39,711 bases of DNA from a virus (Duplodnaviria > Heunggongvirae > Uroviricota > Caudoviricetes). Below are positions 8,055 to 38,700 of this stretch, piece after piece. The notes beneath the pieces were generated by a model, which made no database searches, had not been told where the DNA came from, and saw nothing but the letters and a program-made list of their open reading frames with translations. Each line of letters begins with the position of its first letter. Position 1 is the stretch's first letter. The stretch covers positions 1-39,711 of the IMG/VR virus record IMGVR_UViG_2531839665_000019; one strand, 5' to 3'. Made by a program: the position numbers and the translations under genes.

Positions 8055-9387
8055 TAATCACCATCCCGGCGGTTATGTTGTTCGGGTCACGCAGCTGCGG
8101 GTTCAGACGTTGCAGCTCTGCCGCACGGCTGTAATCACCGTACCACTGCCACGCCAGCAACAGCAGACAGCTGTCCGCCTGCACCTGTTTCTGCGTCAGC
8201 GGTGGGCGGCGTGACAGAACCAGCAGGCCGACATCCTGCACGGATGCCGCCACGTTCTTCATGCTCTGAATGATTTCCGGGTACATCAGCCCCAGCGGTG
8301 ATGCGGTTTCGGTTATCCGTTCGCGTTCGCCTTCATAGCGTTCACGGAACAGCGTGATGGCTGCCTGTAAGCGGGTGCGCACATCCCCGACCAGTCGCCC
8401 GATATCCGCCGGTATAAGCTGTTCTGACTGGGCTTCATCGGACAGTATCGCTGTCGCCACGCTGGCCAGCTCTGAGGCCGCCAGAACCGCATAAGCCGCT
8501 TTCACGTCCTGTACGTCTTCCACGGACGCATCCGGCGGAAGTGCCACAGACGGCGTTTTATCACCGCTGACCAGTGCGACCGGCAGCGCGACCAGCTCAT
8601 CCATATCTGCCATCACCTCATTCCAGCAGGTCATCACTGTCGCAGAACTGGCGACGCTGTCTTCTCCGGTCAGTCCGGTCGTGGTGGCGGAATCAGTACG
8701 TTCCAGCACCGGCACCGCGTGCCCGACATCTGACGTGTGGATTTCCAGCACCTCTGCCAGCCCGCCAATAAATTTCCCGGGTTCGCTGGCCAGCGACATC
8801 ATATTGTCGATGGATGAGAGAAAATCGCTTTTGAACGTCAGCAGGGTATTTACCAGTGTGGCGCGCACTGTCTGGATTTTTTTAATCACGCTGTTAATGG
8901 TCTTTAAAGGGGCTGTAACAGCGTCAAATAATTCGCTTAACTGCGCCAGTAACTTATCCAGTTCTTCAAATAACTGCTGTGCAAACAGCTCCGGTAACGG
9001 GGTGCTGAACAACGCGCTGCCGGTGCGGTTCTCCAGAAAACTCATGTCGATGGTGCAGCTGTCCGGGCTTTCTGCGTCATGGCGAATGCTGTAGCCGGTC
9101 ACAATCACCGACGGTACGGAGCCGAAAACCGGGTGAATCAGCTCACCATCGCCGCCTTTATCCAGGGCGGCGATCAGCTTTTCAAGTTTATATTCGTAAT
9201 ACTCCCCCCACAGGAACGCCGTCATGCGGAACGGTCGCGCCTTGCGTCCGAGGTCGTGCAAATCTGCCCCGTCAACAAACGGGTATTCATAGACCGCATG
9301 GTCGCGGCTGATTTGTTCGTCCGTGTTCAGTACGTCAAACTGCACACCGCGAAAGGAGGCGTTTTGCAGGTTTTCAGCCCAGCCCAT
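8038..9387 (-). CDS. DNA circularisation protein N-like (Mu gp43)
   Basis: 449 aa ORF immediately downstream of tape measure, as in Mu. Confidence 0.7.
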   Translation of the reverse strand: MGWAENLQNASFRGVQFDVLNTDEQISRDHAVYEYPFVDGADLHDLGRKARPFRMTAFLWGEYYEYKLEKLIAALDKGGDGELIHPVFGSVPSVIVTGYSIRHDAESPDSCTIDMSFLENRTGSALFSTPLPELFAQQLFEELDKLLAQLSELFDAVTAPLKTINSVIKKIQTVRATLVNTLLTFKSDFLSSIDNMMSLASEPGKFIGGLAEVLEIHTSDVGHAVPVLERTDSATTTGLTGEDSVASSATVMTCWNEVMADMDELVALPVALVSGDKTPSVALPPDASVEDVQDVKAAYAVLAASELASVATAILSDEAQSEQLIPADIGRLVGDVRTRLQAAITLFRERYEGERERITETASPLGLMYPEIIQSMKNVAASVQDVGLLVLSRRPPLTQKQVQADSCLLLLAWQWYGDYSRAAELQRLNPQLRDPNNITAGMVINAYAK

Positions 9388-21581: not shown

Positions 21582-23279
21582 TTACCATCCTCCTGAACCA
21601 AAACGCCCGCCACGGTCACGCCCGGTGCTGCGTGGGGTGTGAATCTGAAATTTTGCGCTGCGCGATACCGCCAGCGTCCACAGCATGTGCAGACAGTCCG
21701 GGCCATCATCGTGGTCGGCTTTGGGGTAGTGGCGTAGCTGGTCAATCAGCGTCTGATGTGCCGGACTGATGCGGATCAGGCCGTTGGCCATATGCGGCTG
21801 AAGAGACTCAATACGCAGCGCTTTATCCTCCAGCGGGATGACCGGCAGCGCCGGAACCGGCACGCCCAGCGCCGCCGAACGCTCAACCAGCACGGTACGC
21901 AGAAACTCCTGAAACTGGACGGACTCAAACGACCAGCACAGACAGTGGTATTCCCGCTGATACTTAATCACGTCTTCGATAAGTTTGTTTGGCAGACGTC
22001 GGCGGATATCGGCTTCAACCACATCCAGAATGCCGGTAAAGCGGTTAAAGCCCCCCACGAGAATGGCCGACGGGTCGCGGTTTTTGTTTTTCTTCCCGAG
22101 ACTGGGGTCAACAGCACCATAAAACACCCATTCATCAAGACGGTTAACCCAGAACTTAATGCAGCCAGCAAACAGCGCATCTTCACCGCTGACCGGGTCG
22201 TTCTGGTATTCAGAATCAAAGGTGTCATGACCGTCACGGACACGGATTTTCATCAGTGCCAGCAGGGGACGCGCCGCCCATGACACCACCGACCCGGCGA
22301 GCATGTCGGCTTCGTTCTGTCGGTAAAGTGCCTCTGCTGCTTCCGGCTGTTTGTTGCGGATGAGTTCTTCCCACTCGTCCCACAGCTTCATATTGGCAGG
22401 CCACTGAATGACAGCCTTAAAGCGGGCCGTTTTCCACATCGGGTTATTCAGCGTGCGTGACAGTACGGAGTCGTAATGCAGGATGGTCCCGATATAAATA
22501 ATATCGGTTTTACCGCCAGCCTCGCCCAGCGGCATCACGGTTTTGGTGAGCCAGTCATGCAGCTTGTCGCGCTGCTCCGGGTTACGCACCATCTCGTCGT
22601 TCTCGATGTCGTCGAGGATGACCAGGTCAGGACGGTACGGACCGTGGCGCAGACCACGCAGTTTTTTACCACTACCGGCAACGGTCACCTTGATATTGTT
22701 GGCCGTGACGATGGTCCCCATACGCCAGACGCGCCCCTGTCCGCACACTTCCGGGAAATCGTTTTTTAAACGGGGGTTAAATTCCAGTTCAGCCTTGATG
22801 GCTTCCAGCATCGGATAAGCCTGGTCGATACTGTCCATAATGATGACCGGGTAATGTTTAATGGCCCGGATAATGGTCCACAGGGTAAACAACTGAGTCA
22901 CCAGCGTGGATTTTGCTTCACCACGGGGGGCGGCGATGGCGTCGTTCTCCGGGTCCGGGCTTGCCACAACCTGTGGCAGACGGCTGAACAGGTATTTATG
23001 CAGCTCGCTTTTTGCCGGGTTGCGGACGTAGTGCGGGAAATAGTTTTCGACAAAATAATCGTAGCCCGTCACCGGGTCGCAGACTGCCGCCCGGCGGGCC
23101 TGTGTGGCCTGCGGGTTAACATCGAACCCCAGACATTCAGCCTCAATGGTCTGGCGGAGGTTGGCGATGTACTCCTGTAAGCTTCTCTGAAACTCTTTAA
23201 TGGAAAGTTTACGTTTTGCCACGTCACACCTGCGCTGCTTCTGCCTGCGCTTTTTCGAGACGTGCGCAGGCGATATCAA
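21582..23279 (-). CDS. terminase large subunit
   Basis: 565 aa; Walker A-like PRGEAKST and Walker B-like DLVILDDIEND; listed start is TTG and overlaps the MTase gene, so the true start is uncertain. Confidence 0.85.
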   Translation of the reverse strand: MISPAHVSKKRRQKQRRCDVAKRKLSIKEFQRSLQEYIANLRQTIEAECLGFDVNPQATQARRAAVCDPVTGYDYFVENYFPHYVRNPAKSELHKYLFSRLPQVVASPDPENDAIAAPRGEAKSTLVTQLFTLWTIIRAIKHYPVIIMDSIDQAYPMLEAIKAELEFNPRLKNDFPEVCGQGRVWRMGTIVTANNIKVTVAGSGKKLRGLRHGPYRPDLVILDDIENDEMVRNPEQRDKLHDWLTKTVMPLGEAGGKTDIIYIGTILHYDSVLSRTLNNPMWKTARFKAVIQWPANMKLWDEWEELIRNKQPEAAEALYRQNEADMLAGSVVSWAARPLLALMKIRVRDGHDTFDSEYQNDPVSGEDALFAGCIKFWVNRLDEWVFYGAVDPSLGKKNKNRDPSAILVGGFNRFTGILDVVEADIRRRLPNKLIEDVIKYQREYHCLCWSFESVQFQEFLRTVLVERSAALGVPVPALPVIPLEDKALRIESLQPHMANGLIRISPAHQTLIDQLRHYPKADHDDGPDCLHMLWTLAVSRSAKFQIHTPRSTGRDRGGRFGSGGW

Positions 23280-23964
23280 AATACTGGTTAGTCATTTCAA
23301 TGCCGGTAAATCGTCCGCCACGGGCAAGAACCGGAAGCGCGGTTGTCCCGCTTCCCATAAACGGATCGAGAACGTGCGCATCCGGTGCCAGCGGTTTAAC
23401 CAGCTCGGCCATCAGCTGAACCGGCTTTGCGGTCATGTGCAGTTTTTCGGACGGGACGACACGCTGCGTAATCACACCCGGGAACGGGCCACCGTGCGGG
23501 CATTTGTCGAGTTTTCCGTTGCTGCCCCAGACCACATACTCGGCCTGATGCCGGAAATAGCCGGTGTGTGGCGCACGGGAAGCCTGCGTTTTATCCCAGA
23601 CAACCAGACCGCGCCACAGCACACCACCGGCCTGAAATGCATCGGTAAGCGCCGGTAGTTGTCGCCAGTCACTGAACACCATGAAATAACCGCCGGGATT
23701 CAGCCTGTGCAATGCATGAGATATCCACATGGAACACCAGAACGCCCAGCTGCGCTGGTCGCGGTTATCGCCGGTGAACTCGGCATACTGAGTGTGACCG
23801 ACATACTTGTCCGAAGGGGCCATGCTGCGGTCTGATTTGTGTGTGCCACCACTGCTGTAAGGCGGGTCGGTAATGACGGCATCAAAACGTTCAGATAACG
23901 CCGGCAGCACATCAAGAACATCACCGCAATACAACGTTGCGTTACCAATAATCTGTTTTTGCAT
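23224..23964 (-). CDS. DNA methyltransferase, beta-class N6-adenine/N4-cytosine (orphan, no cognate nuclease seen)
   Basis: 246 aa; motif IV DPPY near the N-terminus, HMTAKP, and C-terminal AdoMet motif DPFMGSGTT. Confidence 0.9.
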   Translation of the reverse strand: MQKQIIGNATLYCGDVLDVLPALSERFDAVITDPPYSSGGTHKSDRSMAPSDKYVGHTQYAEFTGDNRDQRSWAFWCSMWISHALHRLNPGGYFMVFSDWRQLPALTDAFQAGGVLWRGLVVWDKTQASRAPHTGYFRHQAEYVVWGSNGKLDKCPHGGPFPGVITQRVVPSEKLHMTAKPVQLMAELVKPLAPDAHVLDPFMGSGTTALPVLARGGRFTGIEMTNQYFDIACARLEKAQAEAAQV

Positions 23965-29050: not shown

Positions 29051-29271
29051 TGCGCCGCCTCCTGTTTTGCCACTTTAAACGCCCGTAACATCGGAACCGT
29101 TTTACCGGTGATGACGGTTTTCATTAAAAGGCCACCGCCACTCTGGTGGCGCACTTCAGGAGCCACAAACAGCGCCGCATCCACAACCCGGTTATAGCGG
29201 CGAAACTCCCAGAGCCAGCAGGTAACAATGATTTTTGCTTTAGTCCCATAGTTATAAAATTCAATATTCAT
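29047..29271 (-). CDS. hypothetical phage early protein
   Basis: 74 aa ORF, start/stop overlapping neighbours. Confidence 0.4.
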   Translation of the reverse strand: MNIEFYNYGTKAKIIVTCWLWEFRRYNRVVDAALFVAPEVRHQSGGGLLMKTVITGKTVPMLRAFKVAKQEAAQ

Positions 29272-29497: not shown

Positions 29498-30208
29498 TTA
29501 CACCCTCCCCAGTGCCAGCGTTTTGTTGCTCTGACCATTAACCCCCTGATGCAGTCTGGCGTTTTTCCCGGCGATAAAACCGGCAGTAGCGGCAAACTCT
29601 GCACCCCGGCACGCTTTAGCCGTACGCATATCCCCGTCGCGCAGGCCTTTAGTGCTGTGCAGGTTCTTTCTGTAAAGCTCAAGGCGGCTTTTTTCTTCCG
29701 GGGAGACGTCATACACCGCAATGACATCACGGGCACCAAAGACCCAGCCTTCGCAGAACTGGTCGCCACGGGCTACCCGCGTGGACGGACCGCAACGTTT
29801 GCAGTGTTTATCCTGATATTTTTTACGTTCAGCCATCATCTGACGGGAAAGCACATCAAACGCGTATGCCGCAATTTCCGGGCGGCTGTCAGGACCATAA
29901 AAACGAACGTAACGTTTGAGTGAACCAGAAGCCCGGTATTCGCCGGATATGTAACACTCGACACCGAAGGCTTTACAGACCAGGTCACACAGGATGTGCA
30001 TATAACGCGGCGGTGTACTGGCATCACTCGGCGCACCCGCGCTGGCAGCTTCCTGAATGTCGAACAATTCCGCGTCGTTTTCGCTGATGCCATGCTGGCG
30101 CATATAAGCCTGGGCTTTTGCAATAGCGTTAGCGGCTTCTTCCGGGCTTGATGTTCCTCTGGCAAGGCGTAACAGTTTTTTGATTTTGGCAATGTATTTA
30201 TCTTTCAT
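29498..30208 (-). CDS. DUF2786-like phage protein with Cys cluster
   Basis: 236 aa; N-terminus KIKKLLRLARGTSSPEEAANAIAKAQAYM resembles DUF2786; Cys cluster CKRCG...FCEGW suggests metal binding. Confidence 0.55.
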   Translation of the reverse strand: MKDKYIAKIKKLLRLARGTSSPEEAANAIAKAQAYMRQHGISENDAELFDIQEAASAGAPSDASTPPRYMHILCDLVCKAFGVECYISGEYRASGSLKRYVRFYGPDSRPEIAAYAFDVLSRQMMAERKKYQDKHCKRCGPSTRVARGDQFCEGWVFGARDVIAVYDVSPEEKSRLELYRKNLHSTKGLRDGDMRTAKACRGAEFAATAGFIAGKNARLHQGVNGQSNKTLALGRV

Positions 30209-32870: not shown

Positions 32871-33110
32871 TTATTGCCATACGACGGTGCAGCCGTCGAT
32901 ACAGGACGTTTTCACCACGCGGCGCAGGCCGCTGAATGTCTGGACGATTTCCGTTACCGGCCATACAGGACCACCCACGGGCGGGCAGGCATAAACCACA
33001 GGTAAACGGTGATGCTGTCCCGTTACACGACCGCCGGTGGTGTGAATGGCCACACGGGCACGGGAACGGACGGCGTTAATGGTCTGCTTGTCCATCGTCT
33101 TATTCTCCAT
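32871..33110 (-). CDS. small hypothetical protein (kil-position gene)
   Basis: 79 aa ORF immediately downstream of MuB-like gene; no sequence support for function. Confidence 0.35.
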   Translation of the reverse strand: MENKTMDKQTINAVRSRARVAIHTTGGRVTGQHHRLPVVYACPPVGGPVWPVTEIVQTFSGLRRVVKTSCIDGCTVVWQ

Positions 33111-34003
33111 CAGTGAATTAACATTTCTGCGAATTTATCAATGGCCTGCACACTGACCGGCGCATCGCTGATATCACAAATCCGGTACACACCACGCGCC
33201 AGTTTGAACAGGCGGCGGGCATTACCCAGCGAACGTGTATAAAGCGCCTCGCTGATTTCCGGTTCTGCTGCTTCCGGCATCAGCCCGGTGGCTATCTGGT
33301 TAAAATCTTCCTGCGCCAGCGTATCGCCCAGGTTAAGCGCCAGCGCCACACGGCTGTATAACTGGGCGAACTCACCGCGACGTCCCTTGAGGTTAATCAG
33401 AAGGCGTGGCATACCCGCCAGGACAATCCCGATACCCGCTTTGTCATGCAGACGGCGCAGAACCTCCAGTGCGCGATAGGGGAGCAGTTCAGCCTCGTCC
33501 ACCATCAGCAGGCGACCGGAATCACGCAGTTCTCGCACACATGCATCAATCAGTTCGTGGATATTGCCGCGAACTTTTACCCCCAGCTGGCGGCACAGCT
33601 CCTCAAGCAGTGTTCTGGCTGTATAGCCCGGGTCGGCTTCAATCAGGACCGCATCCCGGTTTCTGGCGGCGTATTCACGCAGAATCATTGTTTTGCCAAG
33701 ACCTGCCGCGCCATACAGTACGCAGATTTCACATTCCAGGTGAGCATAGGCCAACACCTCCAGTCCTTTGGCAGCCATACCGGTGGCAACAAATTTCGCT
33801 TTAATACGGCGGCTGTTTTCCTTTTCCCGCTCACGGGTCACAAAGGCAGAAATGCGTTCTTCAATATCAGCCATATCGCCCTGATATTTACCCTGTAAAT
33901 ACTGGTTGATAACGGCGCTGCTACGACCAATAGCACGGGCGACGTGGGTTTGCGTATAGCCGCGACGGGTCATTACGTCATTTAATTGCGTAATTAAACT
34001 CAT
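33110..34003 (-). CDS. B: transposition ATPase MuB-like (AAA+)
   Basis: 297 aa; Walker A GAAGLGKT; N-terminal HTH-like region; immediately downstream of transposase. Confidence 0.85.
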   Translation of the reverse strand: MSLITQLNDVMTRRGYTQTHVARAIGRSSAVINQYLQGKYQGDMADIEERISAFVTREREKENSRRIKAKFVATGMAAKGLEVLAYAHLECEICVLYGAAGLGKTMILREYAARNRDAVLIEADPGYTARTLLEELCRQLGVKVRGNIHELIDACVRELRDSGRLLMVDEAELLPYRALEVLRRLHDKAGIGIVLAGMPRLLINLKGRRGEFAQLYSRVALALNLGDTLAQEDFNQIATGLMPEAAEPEISEALYTRSLGNARRLFKLARGVYRICDISDAPVSVQAIDKFAEMLIH

Positions 34004-34021: not shown

Positions 34022-36064
34022 TTAACGGTTGTTTGTGCCGTTTTTCTTTAAATTGCGTTCGCGTTCAGATGCGAATAAATAAAGTTCTTCTTTTTCCTTT
34101 TTCTCCGGGCGTTCCAGTCCATATCCCAGATTAAAGTCAGGCTTCTGCGTAATGGCCGGGGTAAGCTCGCGTTTAGCCTCTTCGATTTTCTGCGTGGCCC
34201 GTGCAATGCGGCCCCTGACGCGTTTCTCCAGTTTTTGTTCGATAACTGGTTTAGCGAAGGCATCAACCTTGTTACCGTTCCAGATGGCATCGCAGATATA
34301 AGAGCCATCAGCCCGCCGGACAATGACGCTGTTTGCATCATGAATATCGTAACTGACCCTGACTTCATTCCCGTGCTCTGCGGCCAGATCATATGAGTAA
34401 TAAATATTGTTGAATAACTGAATTTCCCCGCGAAATGTTTTGCGCGTCACTTCCGGTCTGAACATTTCATGCAGTTCTTCCGGCGACAGGAAATCAATTT
34501 CAACATTCTGCTCTTTTATCAGTTTCCGGCGATACGCTGCCGGGCTGTAATATTCGCCATCCTCTTTGCGTGGTAGGCTGCTGTGTGGCCGGTTGTTATA
34601 GCGTCTGACCTCCAGCTCTATGGCTGCCATCAGTTGCTCAAAGGTAGGGATTTCATCCCTCGCCTTAACCTGCCGTTTTGTCAGCTCTTTCCCTTTGTGG
34701 GTGGCCTTAATGGCTGACTGCATAATCCGTTGCTGCATCATTACGGTTTCCTTGTCTGCATCCCTTGCGCAGTACGTCTGGAAACTCAGAGCCACGTCTT
34801 TGGGTATTCCTTTGTTTGCCCGTTCAATCACCCCGCGCCCCTGCGGGTTACCTGGTATCCCCGTGTGATGTTCCACACCCAGCCGGGGCAGAATCCCGGT
34901 AATATCGGCATCAAGCACCCGGTTTTTTTCACCGCCCCCGTTATCGGAGTAATAAATCAGCGGTATCCCGTGCTGCGCCATGCCGTAACGTAACGCATCA
35001 GCAACGGCTATCACGTTCTCCGACAGGGACAGTGACCAGCCCACAACAAAGCGTTGCCCAGCATCCATAACAAGCGTCACTTCTGGCCGGAAAATATTGC
35101 CGGTCAGGGGGTTAAACGCGGTCATTTTCATACAGTGACCATCCCCGACCCATACCGCATTAACTGGTAGCGATGTCCAGTCGCGCCGCACAAAGGGATT
35201 GAGCGAACGCCAGGCTGAACCGGTGGAGCGGAAACGCTCTTTAACAATCACCGGGACGCTGCTTAACACCCGTCTTACTGCGTGAACTGAAGGTAATGCT
35301 GCCAGCATTCCCGCATCATTCGCGTGCTTTTCATGCCACCAGGCTGAAAACTCTCGATACGCATATTCAACGGTCGGGCGCTTCCATGAGCGATAGAACA
35401 TAAAGAAATCGCTCAACCACCAGACCTGCTCCCACGGTGTTCCCTTATGATGACCGGGAGCCAGTAACGCCAGTAACTGATTGGCATCACCGCGCGCCAT
35501 CAGCCAGGCGGAATACCATTCCTGTAAACTCCCTGTACTGACGCCAGTTCGCTTACCCTGTCGGGCATTGGCGGTATTACCTGCCACAATAACACGCTCG
35601 GGCAAAGCCTCCTGGCGGATACCATCAACGATGTGTTTTATCGCCGCCGTCCTGGACATTCCTGCGTATTCACGCAGTTTATGCACTTCGGTAGCCAGCA
35701 ATATCCGCGCATCAGCGATGGCCTTTTGCTTGTCGGTCAGTGCCTGGACTTCGCGTAATGCCAGCTCCGGGCATTTGACCATCACCTCCAGTTCATCGCG
35801 GACGGTGACGTTTTTAACTGCCTTCTGCTCAACCACGGCGGGCAGTTGCGCATCTTCCAGAACCTGATGAGTCAGGCGCTTACGTAAAACTTTCTGCGCT
35901 TCAGTGGGCAGGCAGTCGATGTGATACTCGAATGCTTTGGTGCCTTCACGCTTGCGCTTCCATTCCGGGTGCGTCTCTGTGATCCGATTGAGCGTCCAGC
36001 GCACCCCCTGAACTGTACCGGGCAAACCAGGAAGACCGGCCAGCTCATTGGCTGAATAAAACAT
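34022..36064 (-). CDS. A: DDE transposase MuA-like
   Basis: 680 aa; N-terminus with LPGLPGT motif like MuA; catalytic-region motifs VWVGDGH and YYSDNGGGE; start coupled to ner stop. Confidence 0.9.
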   Translation of the reverse strand: MFYSANELAGLPGLPGTVQGVRWTLNRITETHPEWKRKREGTKAFEYHIDCLPTEAQKVLRKRLTHQVLEDAQLPAVVEQKAVKNVTVRDELEVMVKCPELALREVQALTDKQKAIADARILLATEVHKLREYAGMSRTAAIKHIVDGIRQEALPERVIVAGNTANARQGKRTGVSTGSLQEWYSAWLMARGDANQLLALLAPGHHKGTPWEQVWWLSDFFMFYRSWKRPTVEYAYREFSAWWHEKHANDAGMLAALPSVHAVRRVLSSVPVIVKERFRSTGSAWRSLNPFVRRDWTSLPVNAVWVGDGHCMKMTAFNPLTGNIFRPEVTLVMDAGQRFVVGWSLSLSENVIAVADALRYGMAQHGIPLIYYSDNGGGEKNRVLDADITGILPRLGVEHHTGIPGNPQGRGVIERANKGIPKDVALSFQTYCARDADKETVMMQQRIMQSAIKATHKGKELTKRQVKARDEIPTFEQLMAAIELEVRRYNNRPHSSLPRKEDGEYYSPAAYRRKLIKEQNVEIDFLSPEELHEMFRPEVTRKTFRGEIQLFNNIYYSYDLAAEHGNEVRVSYDIHDANSVIVRRADGSYICDAIWNGNKVDAFAKPVIEQKLEKRVRGRIARATQKIEEAKRELTPAITQKPDFNLGYGLERPEKKEKEELYLFASERERNLKKNGTNNR

Positions 36065-36300
36065 TACGCCGCCTTACTGGCATACCGGCTTGGCCAGATC
36101 TCCGCAGGTTCCACACCAATAGCATCGGCTATGATGCGTTCATATTTAGGGCATGAGCGATACAGTGCATTTTTTAAAGAGTCTTTTTTTAGACCAGCGC
36201 GTTCAGAAAGTTCACGCAATGTAAAACCTTTGGTGTGCACAGCGGCAACGATGTACTCGCGGTGCCAGTCTTTGTTCATTACTTCATTTCTAACCATCAT
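36064..36300 (-). CDS. ner: Ner-like DNA-binding regulator
   Basis: 78 aa from ATG 36300 (AAGGG SD); DWHREYIV...KNALYRSCPKYERIIADAIGVEPAEIWPSRY matches the Ner/Nlp pattern. Confidence 0.85.
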   Translation of the reverse strand: MMVRNEVMNKDWHREYIVAAVHTKGFTLRELSERAGLKKDSLKNALYRSCPKYERIIADAIGVEPAEIWPSRYASKAA

Positions 36301-36316
36301 TAGGTTACCCTTAAAA

Positions 36317-36359
36317 GTTATCCGTACGGATAACACCGCCGTGTTATCCCTTCGGATAC
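36317..36359. promoter_or_regulatory. two operator-like palindromes (GTTATCC-N4-GGATAAC) in the ner/repressor divergent control region
   Basis: Perfect palindrome GTTATCCGTACGGATAAC (36317-36334) and near-copy GTTATCCCTTCGGATAC (36343-36359), just upstream of ner. Confidence 0.5.
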
Positions 36360-36468
36360 AAGTATTGATCCATAAATAGAAAATTACAAGCTTTCTTTTC
36401 TTGATTTAGAGAAAAGAAAGTCTCTTTGTGGAGATTGGTTGAAAATCAATATGTTAGAAGGAAAGAAA

Positions 36469-37119
36469 ATGAGTAAACAAACCGCTGATGATTTTTCCTT
36501 TTCTCAGGATAGAAAAGAAAGCATTCAAGACAGAATCAAACAACTGATTGGCAGCAGGAGCCTGCGTAAAGCCACCTCAGACTGGGGATTACCGTACTCG
36601 ACCATAAATAACTACTTTGAAAAAGGCACCACACCTGGCCTAAATGTGGTCGCTACAATAGCAAAATTAGAGAATGTATCACTGGAATGGCTGGTCTATG
36701 GTGAGAACAAAAACATTCTAATGATAGAAAACACAAAGGTGGCTACAGAAGACGTTAACCGCCCCGATACAAGTATTGTTGACGAAATACTAAGACGAGC
36801 CGCTCCAGAAGATAGAGAGCGTCTTATTGATATGCTTTGTTGTATTGGTATCAAAGGAGTCCTGGAACGCTTACAACAACCCATCAGGCAAGCTACGCAG
36901 GCCGACAGCGACCAAGACGAACAGGAGAATGCCATCAGAAGCCTAAACATCAGGGAATCACTCAAAGACGTTATATGTATGGCTCTAGATGGTAATGAAG
37001 AAACCGACAAAGAGATTTTGCGACGCATCGAATCTCGTGCACGGGCTGGGTCGCCAGGTGGTCAGACCGCTGCCACGCCGGAACAAGAAACGAAGCCTGT
37101 AAGCAAAAAATCAGCATGA
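36469..37119 (+). CDS. phage repressor (CI-like HTH)
   Basis: Start taken at ATG 36469 (AGGA SD); HTH-like segment STINNYFEKGTTPGLNVVATIAKLENVSLEWLVYGE; divergent from ner/A/B as for the Mu c repressor. Confidence 0.7.
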   Translation: MSKQTADDFSFSQDRKESIQDRIKQLIGSRSLRKATSDWGLPYSTINNYFEKGTTPGLNVVATIAKLENVSLEWLVYGENKNILMIENTKVATEDVNRPDTSIVDEILRRAAPEDRERLIDMLCCIGIKGVLERLQQPIRQATQADSDQDEQENAIRSLNIRESLKDVICMALDGNEETDKEILRRIESRARAGSPGGQTAATPEQETKPVSKKSA

Positions 37120-37280
37120 ACGCCTACTGCCTGGTGGGCGCATGCTGCTAACTAATTAGCGACATCCACAACAAAACCAATACAGAAGACGGATAAGAAA
37201 GGGACAAATTAAGCAAGGTTAAAACGGGTTTTAAAATCTTTTAAAAGGCGATCGCTTTCCTGCACCACCAGATCAAAGTA

Positions 37281-37414
37281 GTCCAGAATAAAGCGTAAAA
37301 AAAGGCACTTTTGGTCATTTCTTTCAAAACGATCCAGAATCGGTGAAATCTCTCACATCCCGCACCACTCAAGGCTTGCAGGTTCGTCCAGGCTGCTCGG
37401 ACCCAGTCCAGAAT
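37281..37414. repeat. three copies of (G/A)TCCAGAAT near the prophage left end (candidate transposase-binding sites)
   Basis: GTCCAGAAT at 37281-37289, ATCCAGAAT at 37332-37340, GTCCAGAAT at 37406-37414, all in the same orientation within 135 bp. Confidence 0.4.
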
Positions 37415-37430
37415 TGATCACCACCCCACA

Positions 37431-37667
37431 AATACAGCGGTAGGTCTGGGGCTATACCCGGATTACGCAACGGCTGTTGATAAGATGGTTCGCGTGAAAG
37501 ATATCTTTATACCGATTGAGAGCAATGCCAAACGCTACGACGCGATGAATAAAGGCATTTTCAAAGACCTAACCAAACATACTGATGTGATCCTGAAAAA
37601 ATCGTATGAAGTGATGCATGGGGAATTGGGGAATGTGGATTCGATCCAGAGCTGGTCGAATGCGTAA
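37431..37667 (+). pseudogene. 3' fragment of host FGGY-family sugar kinase gene (ygcE-like), truncated by the prophage
   Basis: Open frame encodes ...NTAVGLGLYPDYATAVDKMVRVKDIFIP...SWSNA*, resembling FGGY kinase C-termini; upstream residues in the same frame are non-kinase-like; 5' boundary approximate. Confidence 0.45.
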
Positions 37668-37675
37668 GTGAGGAA

Positions 37676-37699
37676 GGCCGGGCGGGAAACTGCCCGGCC
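37676..37699 (+). other. GC-rich stem-loop downstream of the kinase stop
   Basis: GGCCGGGC-GGGAAACT-GCCCGGCC; 8-bp GC stem; no U-tract follows, so terminator function uncertain. Confidence 0.3.
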
Positions 37700-37713
37700 T
37701 GAACATACCTGAA

Positions 37714-37851
37714 TGGTTATCCCCGCTGACGCGGGGAACATAAGTTCGACAACTTAAAAAATGATAACAAGTCCGGTTTATCCCCGCTGATGCAGGGAAC
37801 ATAATAAAAACTTTAACTAGTTCGGTTTATCCCTGTTTTTACAAGGAATAT
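37714..37851 (-). CRISPR. degenerate type I-E CRISPR remnant (3 decayed repeats; spacers 32 and 20 bp)
   Basis: Repeats at 37714-37741, 37774-37802 and 37823-37851 with 2 to about 10 mismatches versus CGGTTTATCCCCGCTGGCGCGGGGAACTC. Confidence 0.6.
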
Positions 37852-38305
37852 TAACTACACTCGATGTCTTTAGAATAAAAGACAATACGAATCGCACTTT
37901 ATCAATTTTCACTTAAAGTATGAACTGGATATCTTTATTCATAAGAACTATTCATCAACAGCGTATAGAGGCGGTTATGTAAAACCACTCATTAGCCTCA
38001 AAACAAAGACAAACTTCCAGATTTATTACTTAACCAATGAATAACAAGCTTAAAAAACATACTGTTATTCTAAAGAAAAAATTAACAGGCATTAATTCAA
38101 TATTAAAAAAATAATAGATTAAAATTTCTTAACGATTTAAGAATCATACAAATAACACTTTGATTAAATTTAATTTTTTGTATCGATAATTGTGAACCTC
38201 TCTGGCATGGAGAACTATTTTGAACATGAGGTGTTACGTGGATATGTTGCTTATTACAAGTACTGCTAATATAAAAACTTGAGAAAGAGATAACGGGTTA
38301 TATGG

Positions 38306-38700
38306 TGGTTTATCCCCGCTGGCGCGGGGAACTCTAATCACGTTTTAGCGCGCCCTCGTCCGGTTTCGGTTTATCCCCGCTGGCGCGGGGAACTCAAGAC
38401 GACGTGATCCGCAAAGTCGAAGGCACGCGGTTTATCCCCGCTGGCGCGGGGAACTCTGTTTTTCTGCCGGTTTAACACGGTGCGATAACGGTTTATCCCC
38501 GCTGGCGCGGGGAACTCTGTTTCTGTCCCAACTGAACAGCGCCGATAGTCGGTTTATCCCCGCTGGCGCGGGGAACTCGAATGATCCCAAATTTGGGTTA
38601 CAGAACCAGTCGGTTTATCCCCGCTGGCGCGGGGAACTCGGACTTAAAGATCGCATCACAGTACTGGAGGGCGGTTTATCCCCGCTGGCGCGGGGAACTC
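38306..38700 (-). CRISPR. type I-E CRISPR array, 7 repeats / 6 spacers (E. coli ygcE-ygcF CRISPR2-type locus)
   Basis: 29-bp repeat CGGTTTATCCCCGCTGGCGCGGGGAACTC at 38306, 38367, 38428, 38489, 38550, 38611, 38672; all spacers exactly 32 bp; leader-distal repeat (38306) has a terminal base change. Confidence 0.95.

Follow-up and report, generated by a model that had tools for sequence, protein, structure and literature searches.

Candidate transposase-binding sites at the ends of a Mu-like prophage inserted in Escherichia coli ygcE

Detailed data on end recognition by transposable phages come essentially from Mu, and the lack of such data for the other transposable phages has been stated (PMC8705779). 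The target-site duplication is 5 bp long in Mu and 6 bp long in B3, and a length of 5 or 6 bp is treated as a hallmark of these phages (PMC8705779). Packaging of Mu DNA starts from attL (PMC2837660). For the D3112-type phages of Pseudomonas aeruginosa, three putative 22-bp sites at each end were proposed by comparison (PMC4378225).

The window, that is the whole stretch of 39,711 bp analysed here, belongs to an E. coli chromosome and contains a Mu-like prophage on the minus strand, inserted in the host gene ygcE. A first-pass annotation had noted a 9-mer, (G/A)TCCAGAAT, three times just inside a prophage end and had likened its arrangement to L1–L3 of Mu. Both statements stand. The three copies were recovered at 37281, 37332 and 37406 by a pattern scan of the window, and the layout is that of Mu: L1 lies near the terminus and is followed by a long spacer and by L2 and L3, while at the right end R1 and R2 are 22 bp apart and R3 is inverted. 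The repeats are very probably the core halves of L1–L3, putative binding sites at attL for the phage's own MuA-family DDE transposase. The features considered are listed in Table 1.

Table 1. Features of the left end and the adjoining genes (positions in the window)
Feature	Position	Strand	Basis or remarks
MuB-like AAA+ ATPase gene	33110–34003	-	Pfam AAA_22 9.7e-23, TniB 3.5e-7
Transposase gene A, 680 aa	34022–36064	-	Pfam Mu-transpos_C 1.3e-16, HTH_Tnp_Mu_1 1.3e-10, weak rve
Co-varying patch, codons 137–188 of A	35501–35656	-	Varies with TTCTGGA versus TTCTGGG
Ner-like regulator gene	36064–36336	-	Pfam HTH_35 1.5e-25
CI-type repressor gene	36439–37119	+	Pfam Phage_CI_repr 1.6e-5; stop codon bounds the 311-bp left-end segment
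Putative site L3 (first-pass copy 1)	37278–37299, core 37281–37289	-	TTTACGCTTTATTCTGGACTAC; best hit in the window, 22.0 bits
Conserved block between L2 and L3	37309–37322	-	GAAATGACCAAAA, then a T-run; alignments of 10 and 16 left ends
Putative site L2 (first-pass copy 2)	37329–37350, core 37332–37340	-	ATTCTGGAT on the phage strand; core conserved
Conserved block in the L1–L2 spacer	37370–37380	-	GCAAGCCTTG, includes TGCAAGCCT; nearly invariant in alignments
Putative site L1 (first-pass copy 3)	37403–37424, core 37406–37414	-	22-bp stretch GTGGTGATCAATTCTGGACTGG; 17.5 bits
Conserved terminal heptamer TGTGGGG	37424–37430	-	Starts 16/16 related left ends, flanks unrelated
Left terminus	37429–37430	-	CA on +; K-12 ygcE empty site
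4-bp target-site duplication, one copy	37431–37434		AATA on +, TATT in phage orientation

The prophage shares with Mu the TG...CA termini, three sites per end, bipartite sites of ~22 bp, and the gene order repressor, ner, A, B; the right end of Mu likewise has two abutting sites and, at 56–78, a third one in the opposite orientation. It differs from Mu in the L1–L2 and L2–L3 spacings (74 and 51 bp here, roughly 105 and 40 bp in Mu), in the target duplication (4 bp instead of 5 bp; PMC8705779), in the transposase (~15% identical) and in having a CI-type repressor. The sequence of the 9-mer had been said to depart from the Mu consensus, and no cross-match was obtained in either direction. The Mu consensus had no match within 6 mismatches in the ends of this family, but it was imperfectly registered and found Mu's own sites only at 4–5 mismatches; the reverse scan, in which the prophage family consensus matched nothing in the Mu ends at up to 3 mismatches, is the more reliable negative. 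Mu was absent from the tblastn hits listed for the transposase, and assignment to phage Mu sensu stricto (Muvirus) was rejected on site consensus, 5-bp duplication and transposase kinship.

The features common to Mu-type ends in the wider sense are present, namely TG...CA termini, three sites per end in mirror-image terminal placement, MuA- and MuB-like genes, and near-random insertion (61 genomes) with a short target duplication (4 bp). A transposase-site array is an expected feature of Mu-like phages, and the recognition sequence is lineage-specific; the general picture of how these phages work is unchanged. The earlier suggestion of a distinct transposase specificity is supported by the different site sequence, and it fits because the transposase is only remotely related to MuA.

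The D3112-type phages resemble the prophage in having three imperfect repeats of ~22 bp per end (on the left at 10, 93 and 124 bp) and TGT termini (PMC4378225). Their transposases are ~30% identical to that of the window and thus closer to it than MuA. They differ in site sequence, spacing and host range, and their R1 is reported to face the opposite way from R2 and R3; their sites are likewise putative and were derived from sequence comparison (PMC4378225).

The closest isolated phages are Pseudomonas phage VW-6B (transposase 49% identical) and Klebsiella phage Kp4866-3 (46%); no description of their ends was found in the searchable literature. The right end of VW-6B, TGTAGCGCGGCGAAAAATTCTGGACTG, has TTCTGGAC at an unchanged offset and repeats the core after 22 bp, but its third copy is direct and not inverted; the comparison covers the right end, the record being without a left end. 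Kp4866-3 shares the layout (left ~20/90/133, right ~22/44/78) but has the core TTGATACTG. When the left end was compared with isolated phages at the nucleotide level, the sole match was one of 73% over the ner region in two Yersinia phages. The TnsB arrays of Tn7 and CRISPR-associated transposons are alike in their repeated sites, asymmetric ends and MuA-like DDE transposase, but these elements are not phages and have other site numbers. The target duplication of Tn7-type elements is 5 bp.

Prophage termini and target duplication

The left terminus was mapped by comparison with the uninterrupted ygcE of K-12. The empty site reads ...gcgatt/aatacagcgg and the window ...ccccaCA/aatacagcgg, i.e. 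caccaccccaCA/aatacagcgg (the slash marks the junction), so that the prophage ends exactly at 37430, with a terminal CA on the plus strand that is 5'-TG on the phage strand. The first-pass annotation had inferred an end near 37430 and had named a junction far from this position as grounds for doubt; the position mapped is 37430 itself, which can be used as the exact prophage boundary in annotation. To the right of the prophage lie the 3' part of ygcE, CRISPR repeats and queE. The repeats are of Type I-E (CGGTTTATCCCCGCTGGCGCGGGGAACTC, at 37700–37850 and 38300–38700, with seven regular copies and degenerate ones nearer ygcE) and begin ~270 bp from the prophage end; the insertion in ygcE lies next to the CRISPR locus.

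The right end is not contained in the window, which starts inside the prophage at the stop codon of a DUF4376 gene. It was recovered from GCA_012861115.2 (locus L027), which was reached via the tail-fibre protein of the window. This genome carries the same insertion, because the locus is 100% identical to positions 1–2479 of the window and the flank past the right terminus, tattaatcgctgc, is ygcE.

The target duplication was read from the left flank in the window (ccgctgTATT/TG...), the right flank in GCA_012861115.2 (...CA/TATTaatcgc) and the K-12 empty site (ccgctgtattaatcgc). Both ends were retrieved from nine further E. coli prophages, of which eight are flanked by a duplication of exactly 4 bp; together with the window's own insertion this makes nine of ten. 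When the flanks of the E2348/69 prophage were joined with 4 bp removed, an intact eutC was restored over 296/296 bases with no net indel. Moving the termini by one base to obtain a duplication of 5 bp was considered and rejected, because this empty-site test shows no net indel and because, whichever shift is applied, at most one insertion comes out at 5 bp. A literature search yielded no account of a Mu-like phage with a 4-bp duplication; this length and the natural co-variation of site and transposase described below are mildly surprising extras. A literature search on the E2348/69 prophage also gave nothing.

A related left end (73–98% identity) was found in 61 complete E. coli genomes, or ~1% of the complete genomes, in a different gene each time, which is the pattern expected of a transposable phage. 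The left ends of all nine prophages start with TGTGGGGT, and eight of the nine right ends finish with GAAGTTACA; the ten left ends and the nine right ends all have unrelated host flanks. Right arms 99.9–100% identical to that of the window adjoin six different host sequences, so that recent movement of the element by means of these ends is evident.

The exception among the right ends is F163 (NZ_OY754349.1), with a mutated terminus (AGTAAC instead of TGTAAC) and without a flanking duplication. It is flanked by phnJ on one side and by a truncated ABC-type ATPase gene on the other and is probably an immobilized prophage with an adjacent deletion. Two copies lie inside other prophages: that of JNE21-009 is flanked by DNA-circularization and baseplate genes of the surrounding prophage, and that of UMNF18 is in a P2-like tail gene.

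Repeats at the two ends

The pattern RTCCAGAAT has four matches in the window, at 37281, 37332 and 37406 (all on the plus strand) and at 22023, with 0.53 expected from shuffled sequences; four matches were reached in none of 100 shuffles. The three clustered copies have the same orientation, span ~134 bp and lie 17–150 bp inside the left end of the prophage; in phage orientation they read ATTCTGGAY at bases 17–25, 91–99 and 142–150 from the terminus. The match at 22023 was rejected as a site, since it is within the range of the shuffles, and was put down to chance or coding conservation. An 8-mer occurring three times within 160 bp was found at three loci in the window, these repeats, the CRISPR array and one coding gene, and at least one such triple occurs in ~10% of shuffled windows. 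The coding triple, the sole other one outside the CRISPR array, is TTCCAGCA at 8621, 8701 and 8743 (plus strand), three copies within 130 bp inside the DNA-circularization protein gene. Taken alone, the repeat is modestly improbable and is suggestive, not decisive; its significance derives from position, conservation and the other end. A scan of 36900–37700 for promoters and terminators gave no such signals.

Inverted copies at the other end had been proposed as a check on the repeats, and their lack as a refutation. The 82-bp right end has three copies: TTCTGGAC at 18–25, ATTCTGGAT at 39–47 and an inverted GTCCAGAAT at 68–76. Two are inverted relative to the left end and the third is flipped; the R1 core has the same offset from the terminus as L1 (18–25) and R2 lies 22 bp further in. 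The same layout was found in nine other prophages. Their right ends read, going inward, TGTAACTTCGCGTTTTTTTCTGGRC...CAATTCTGGRCGG...GYCCAGAATTG, with TTCTGGRC at 18–25 and 40–47 and a third copy at ~68–77 on the opposite strand.

Alignment to the ends of related Mu-like prophages, also proposed at first pass, showed the motif to be conserved in position and sequence. Sixteen left ends from six enterobacterial genera start with TGTGGGG and have TTCTGG cores at ~18, 90–94 and 141–145. Those from outside E. coli belong to prophages of Yersinia (transposase identity 77%), Salmonella (72 and 60%), Edwardsiella (71%), Pantoea (51%) and Serratia (50%). The hexamers are 96.5% conserved in the 16 left ends, compared with 74.9% for the remainder of bases 8–165, and equal conservation was reached by 4 of 20,000 random hexamer triples (P about 2e-4). 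In the Serratia relative the cores at the three positions have drifted to TTTTAGCAC, TTCTGCAC and TTCTGCAT. A common, uncharacterized family of transposable prophages of Enterobacteriaceae can be delimited by a simple signature, namely a 4-bp duplication, TTCTGG cores (left 18/92/143, right 18/40/68) and TGTGGGG at the terminus.

When the six site classes were aligned on the core, shared positions were found to be T at -10, GCG at -8 to -6 (G at -6 in 6/6 classes) and W W before TTCTGGRC. The full site is bipartite and ~18–22 bp long, with the consensus T.GCG...WWTTCTGGRC, and the 9-mer is its better-conserved half. A weight matrix was constructed from the right-end sites of other prophages only, with none from the window or orthologous to the window's sites. 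Over the 39.7-kb window it ranked L3 first and L1 second (scores in Table 1); on 100 shuffles the mean maximum was 11.0 bits and the overall maximum 18.6. In three complete prophages the top five hits were all end sites.

L1 contains TCAATTCTGG, invariant in the ten E. coli relatives, at the same distance from the terminus as R1. The upstream half of L2 is weak and L2 is absent from the top matrix hits, but its core GATTCTGG (phage bases 91–98) is invariant in the same ten relatives and lies at 90–94 in 16/16 left ends. L3 is conserved at 141–145 in the 16 left ends.

The block in the L1–L2 spacer is possibly a host-factor or bending element. Its 9-mer TGCAAGCCT (37372–37380, phage bases 50–58) also occurs in the Mu L1–L2 spacer at Mu bases 84–92; the chance of such a match is roughly 0.02, and it could be a shared spacer element, for instance for bending or a host factor. 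The third-best matrix hit is TTAGCGGCTTCTTCCGGGCTTG at 30129–30150 (plus strand, 15.7 bits, below the shuffle maximum), in a DUF2786 gene. It is kept in 4/4 complete prophages (AH19B041 at 38441, L005 at 7021, JNE21-009 at 29231); as an internal transposase site it was rejected, its score being in the shuffle range and its retention probably due to coding conservation.

Four GATC (Dam) sites are present in the 311-bp left end, at 37250, 37271, 37331 and 37416; one overlaps the L2 core, one abuts L1 and one is 10 bp from L3. A DNA methyltransferase is encoded by the phage at ~23224–23964, and methylation control of end binding, by analogy with IS10 and Tn5, is conceivable.

Weighing of alternative readings

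As transposase sites, the three on the left and the three in the 82-bp right end would position transposase subunits for end pairing; cleavage of the DNA would then follow the terminal CA, and the ends would be joined to target positions staggered by 4 bp. We infer from the site comparison physical binding by the transposase, as well as the subdomains that would read the half-sites and the sites that would be essential.

The repeats might instead be pac sites or be bound by a host architectural protein (IHF, HU or Fis). Mu is packaged from its left end, host HU acts in the Mu L1–L2 spacer, and the left end contains other conserved blocks, all of which would suit such a role. A pac site, however, is needed at one end only, and the motif stands at mirror-image positions at both. 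The core is unlike the IHF consensus when compared by eye, and the motif changes together with the phage's own transposase in the Klebsiella and Serratia relatives and in the A/G variants described below, which is unexpected for a host-protein site. We regard a packaging or host-factor role as decidedly unlikely.

A role in immunity, with the repressor or the Ner-like protein using the repeats as operator-like sites, is very improbable. The repressor gene does end 160 bp from the first copy, and the repressor and transposase of Mu share a type of DNA-binding domain. The core is nevertheless lacking in the repressor–ner intergenic region (36300–36500), where operators are expected, and a distance of 37 kb separates the immunity region from the right end, where the motif is found as well. 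The prophage of AH19B041 bears most directly on this point: its left end is 97–100% identical to that of the window and has the same sites, yet its immunity module is completely different, with 30–57% identity over the N-terminal part of the repressor, the operators, ner and residues 1–40 of A. With the module replaced and the sites unchanged, the sites do not track the repressor. The first ~40 residues of A change with the immunity module, which speaks against recognition of the end sites by the immunity proteins.

Finally, functionless repeats arising by chance or left neutrally by a local duplication are scarcely credible in spite of the ~10% of shuffled windows with a triple 8-mer within 160 bp, because 16 left ends retain them even where transposase identity has fallen to 50% (P about 2e-4) and right ends have them too.

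Transposase and its co-variation with the sites

In a phmmer comparison the transposase matched MuA with E = 5e-4 over the core only and was barely closer to MuA than to retroviral integrases. Its structure was modelled using 28 homologues (mean pLDDT 72); the model comprises a winged-helix domain (residues 1–75), a helical region (86–275), a catalytic core (300–530) and a beta-barrel (539–595). The best structural match was the Mu transpososome (4FCY; E = 3.5e-15, 581 aligned columns, ~15% identity), followed by TnsB proteins; the MuA core alone aligns over ~340 columns. In structure, the transposase is only a remote relative of MuA. From their position and the alignment length, residues 86–275 would correspond to the end-binding subdomains I-beta/I-gamma of MuA.

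Two variants of the core were found among the E. coli prophages. TTCTGGA(C/T) is present at 6/6 sites in the phage of the window and in JNE21-009 and in the left ends of AH19B041 and Z1323CEC0011; the TTCTGGG variant TTCTGGGC is present at 6/6 sites in six other prophages and in the right ends of AH19B041 and Z1323CEC0011. The transposases of the window and of E2348/69 are 97.4% identical, with 16 of the 18 differences in residues 81–200 (P = 4e-11). At the DNA level, the left end and repressor are divergent (42–77%), as is a patch in A (74–88%), and between these stretches lie ~600 bp at 96–100% identity.

The left-end variant is associated with the patch haplotype in 10/10 prophages. The A-type patch (4/4) has S137, T139, I149, Q151, E156, Q181, E182 and L188, and the G-type patch (6/6) has T137, K139, V149, M151, D156, D181, S182 and V188; the immunity modules that lie between left end and patch differ within both groups. 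The distant relatives all have A at the variable core position, and among them Q181 is kept in 6/6 and L188 in 5/6. This is what co-adaptation of site and reader would look like, and it could partly be linkage between site and patch. In AH19B041 and Z1323CEC0011 the left ends and the patch are A-type but the right ends are G-type. The A/G difference is thus not an absolute specificity barrier; these mosaics indicate that ends are exchanged as modules and that, at the right end at least, either variant is accepted by the transposase.

A wider proposal, which we put forward tentatively and hold to be possible rather than probable, is that the enterobacterial family has a distinct MuA-type transposition system with its own end code, a 4-bp stagger and site variants read by matching variants of residues 137–188. 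Patch variants such as Q181/E182 and D181/S182 would then match TTCTGGA and TTCTGGG, respectively. If true, this would provide a natural specificity pair, usable to learn how MuA-family transposases recognize ends. The family would be useful for comparison, since it has the architecture of Mu but neither its site sequence nor its stagger, and offers natural co-variants of site and protein.

Residues 1–40 of A (35945–36064), which are part of the winged-helix domain (HTH_Tnp_Mu_1), are swapped together with the module comprising ner, the operators and the N-terminal part of the repressor (36064–36830). Between relatives the swapped module is 30–57% identical, compared with 94–100% for the rest of A. 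The swap is reminiscent of Mu/D108 and suggests a transposition enhancer in the operator region.
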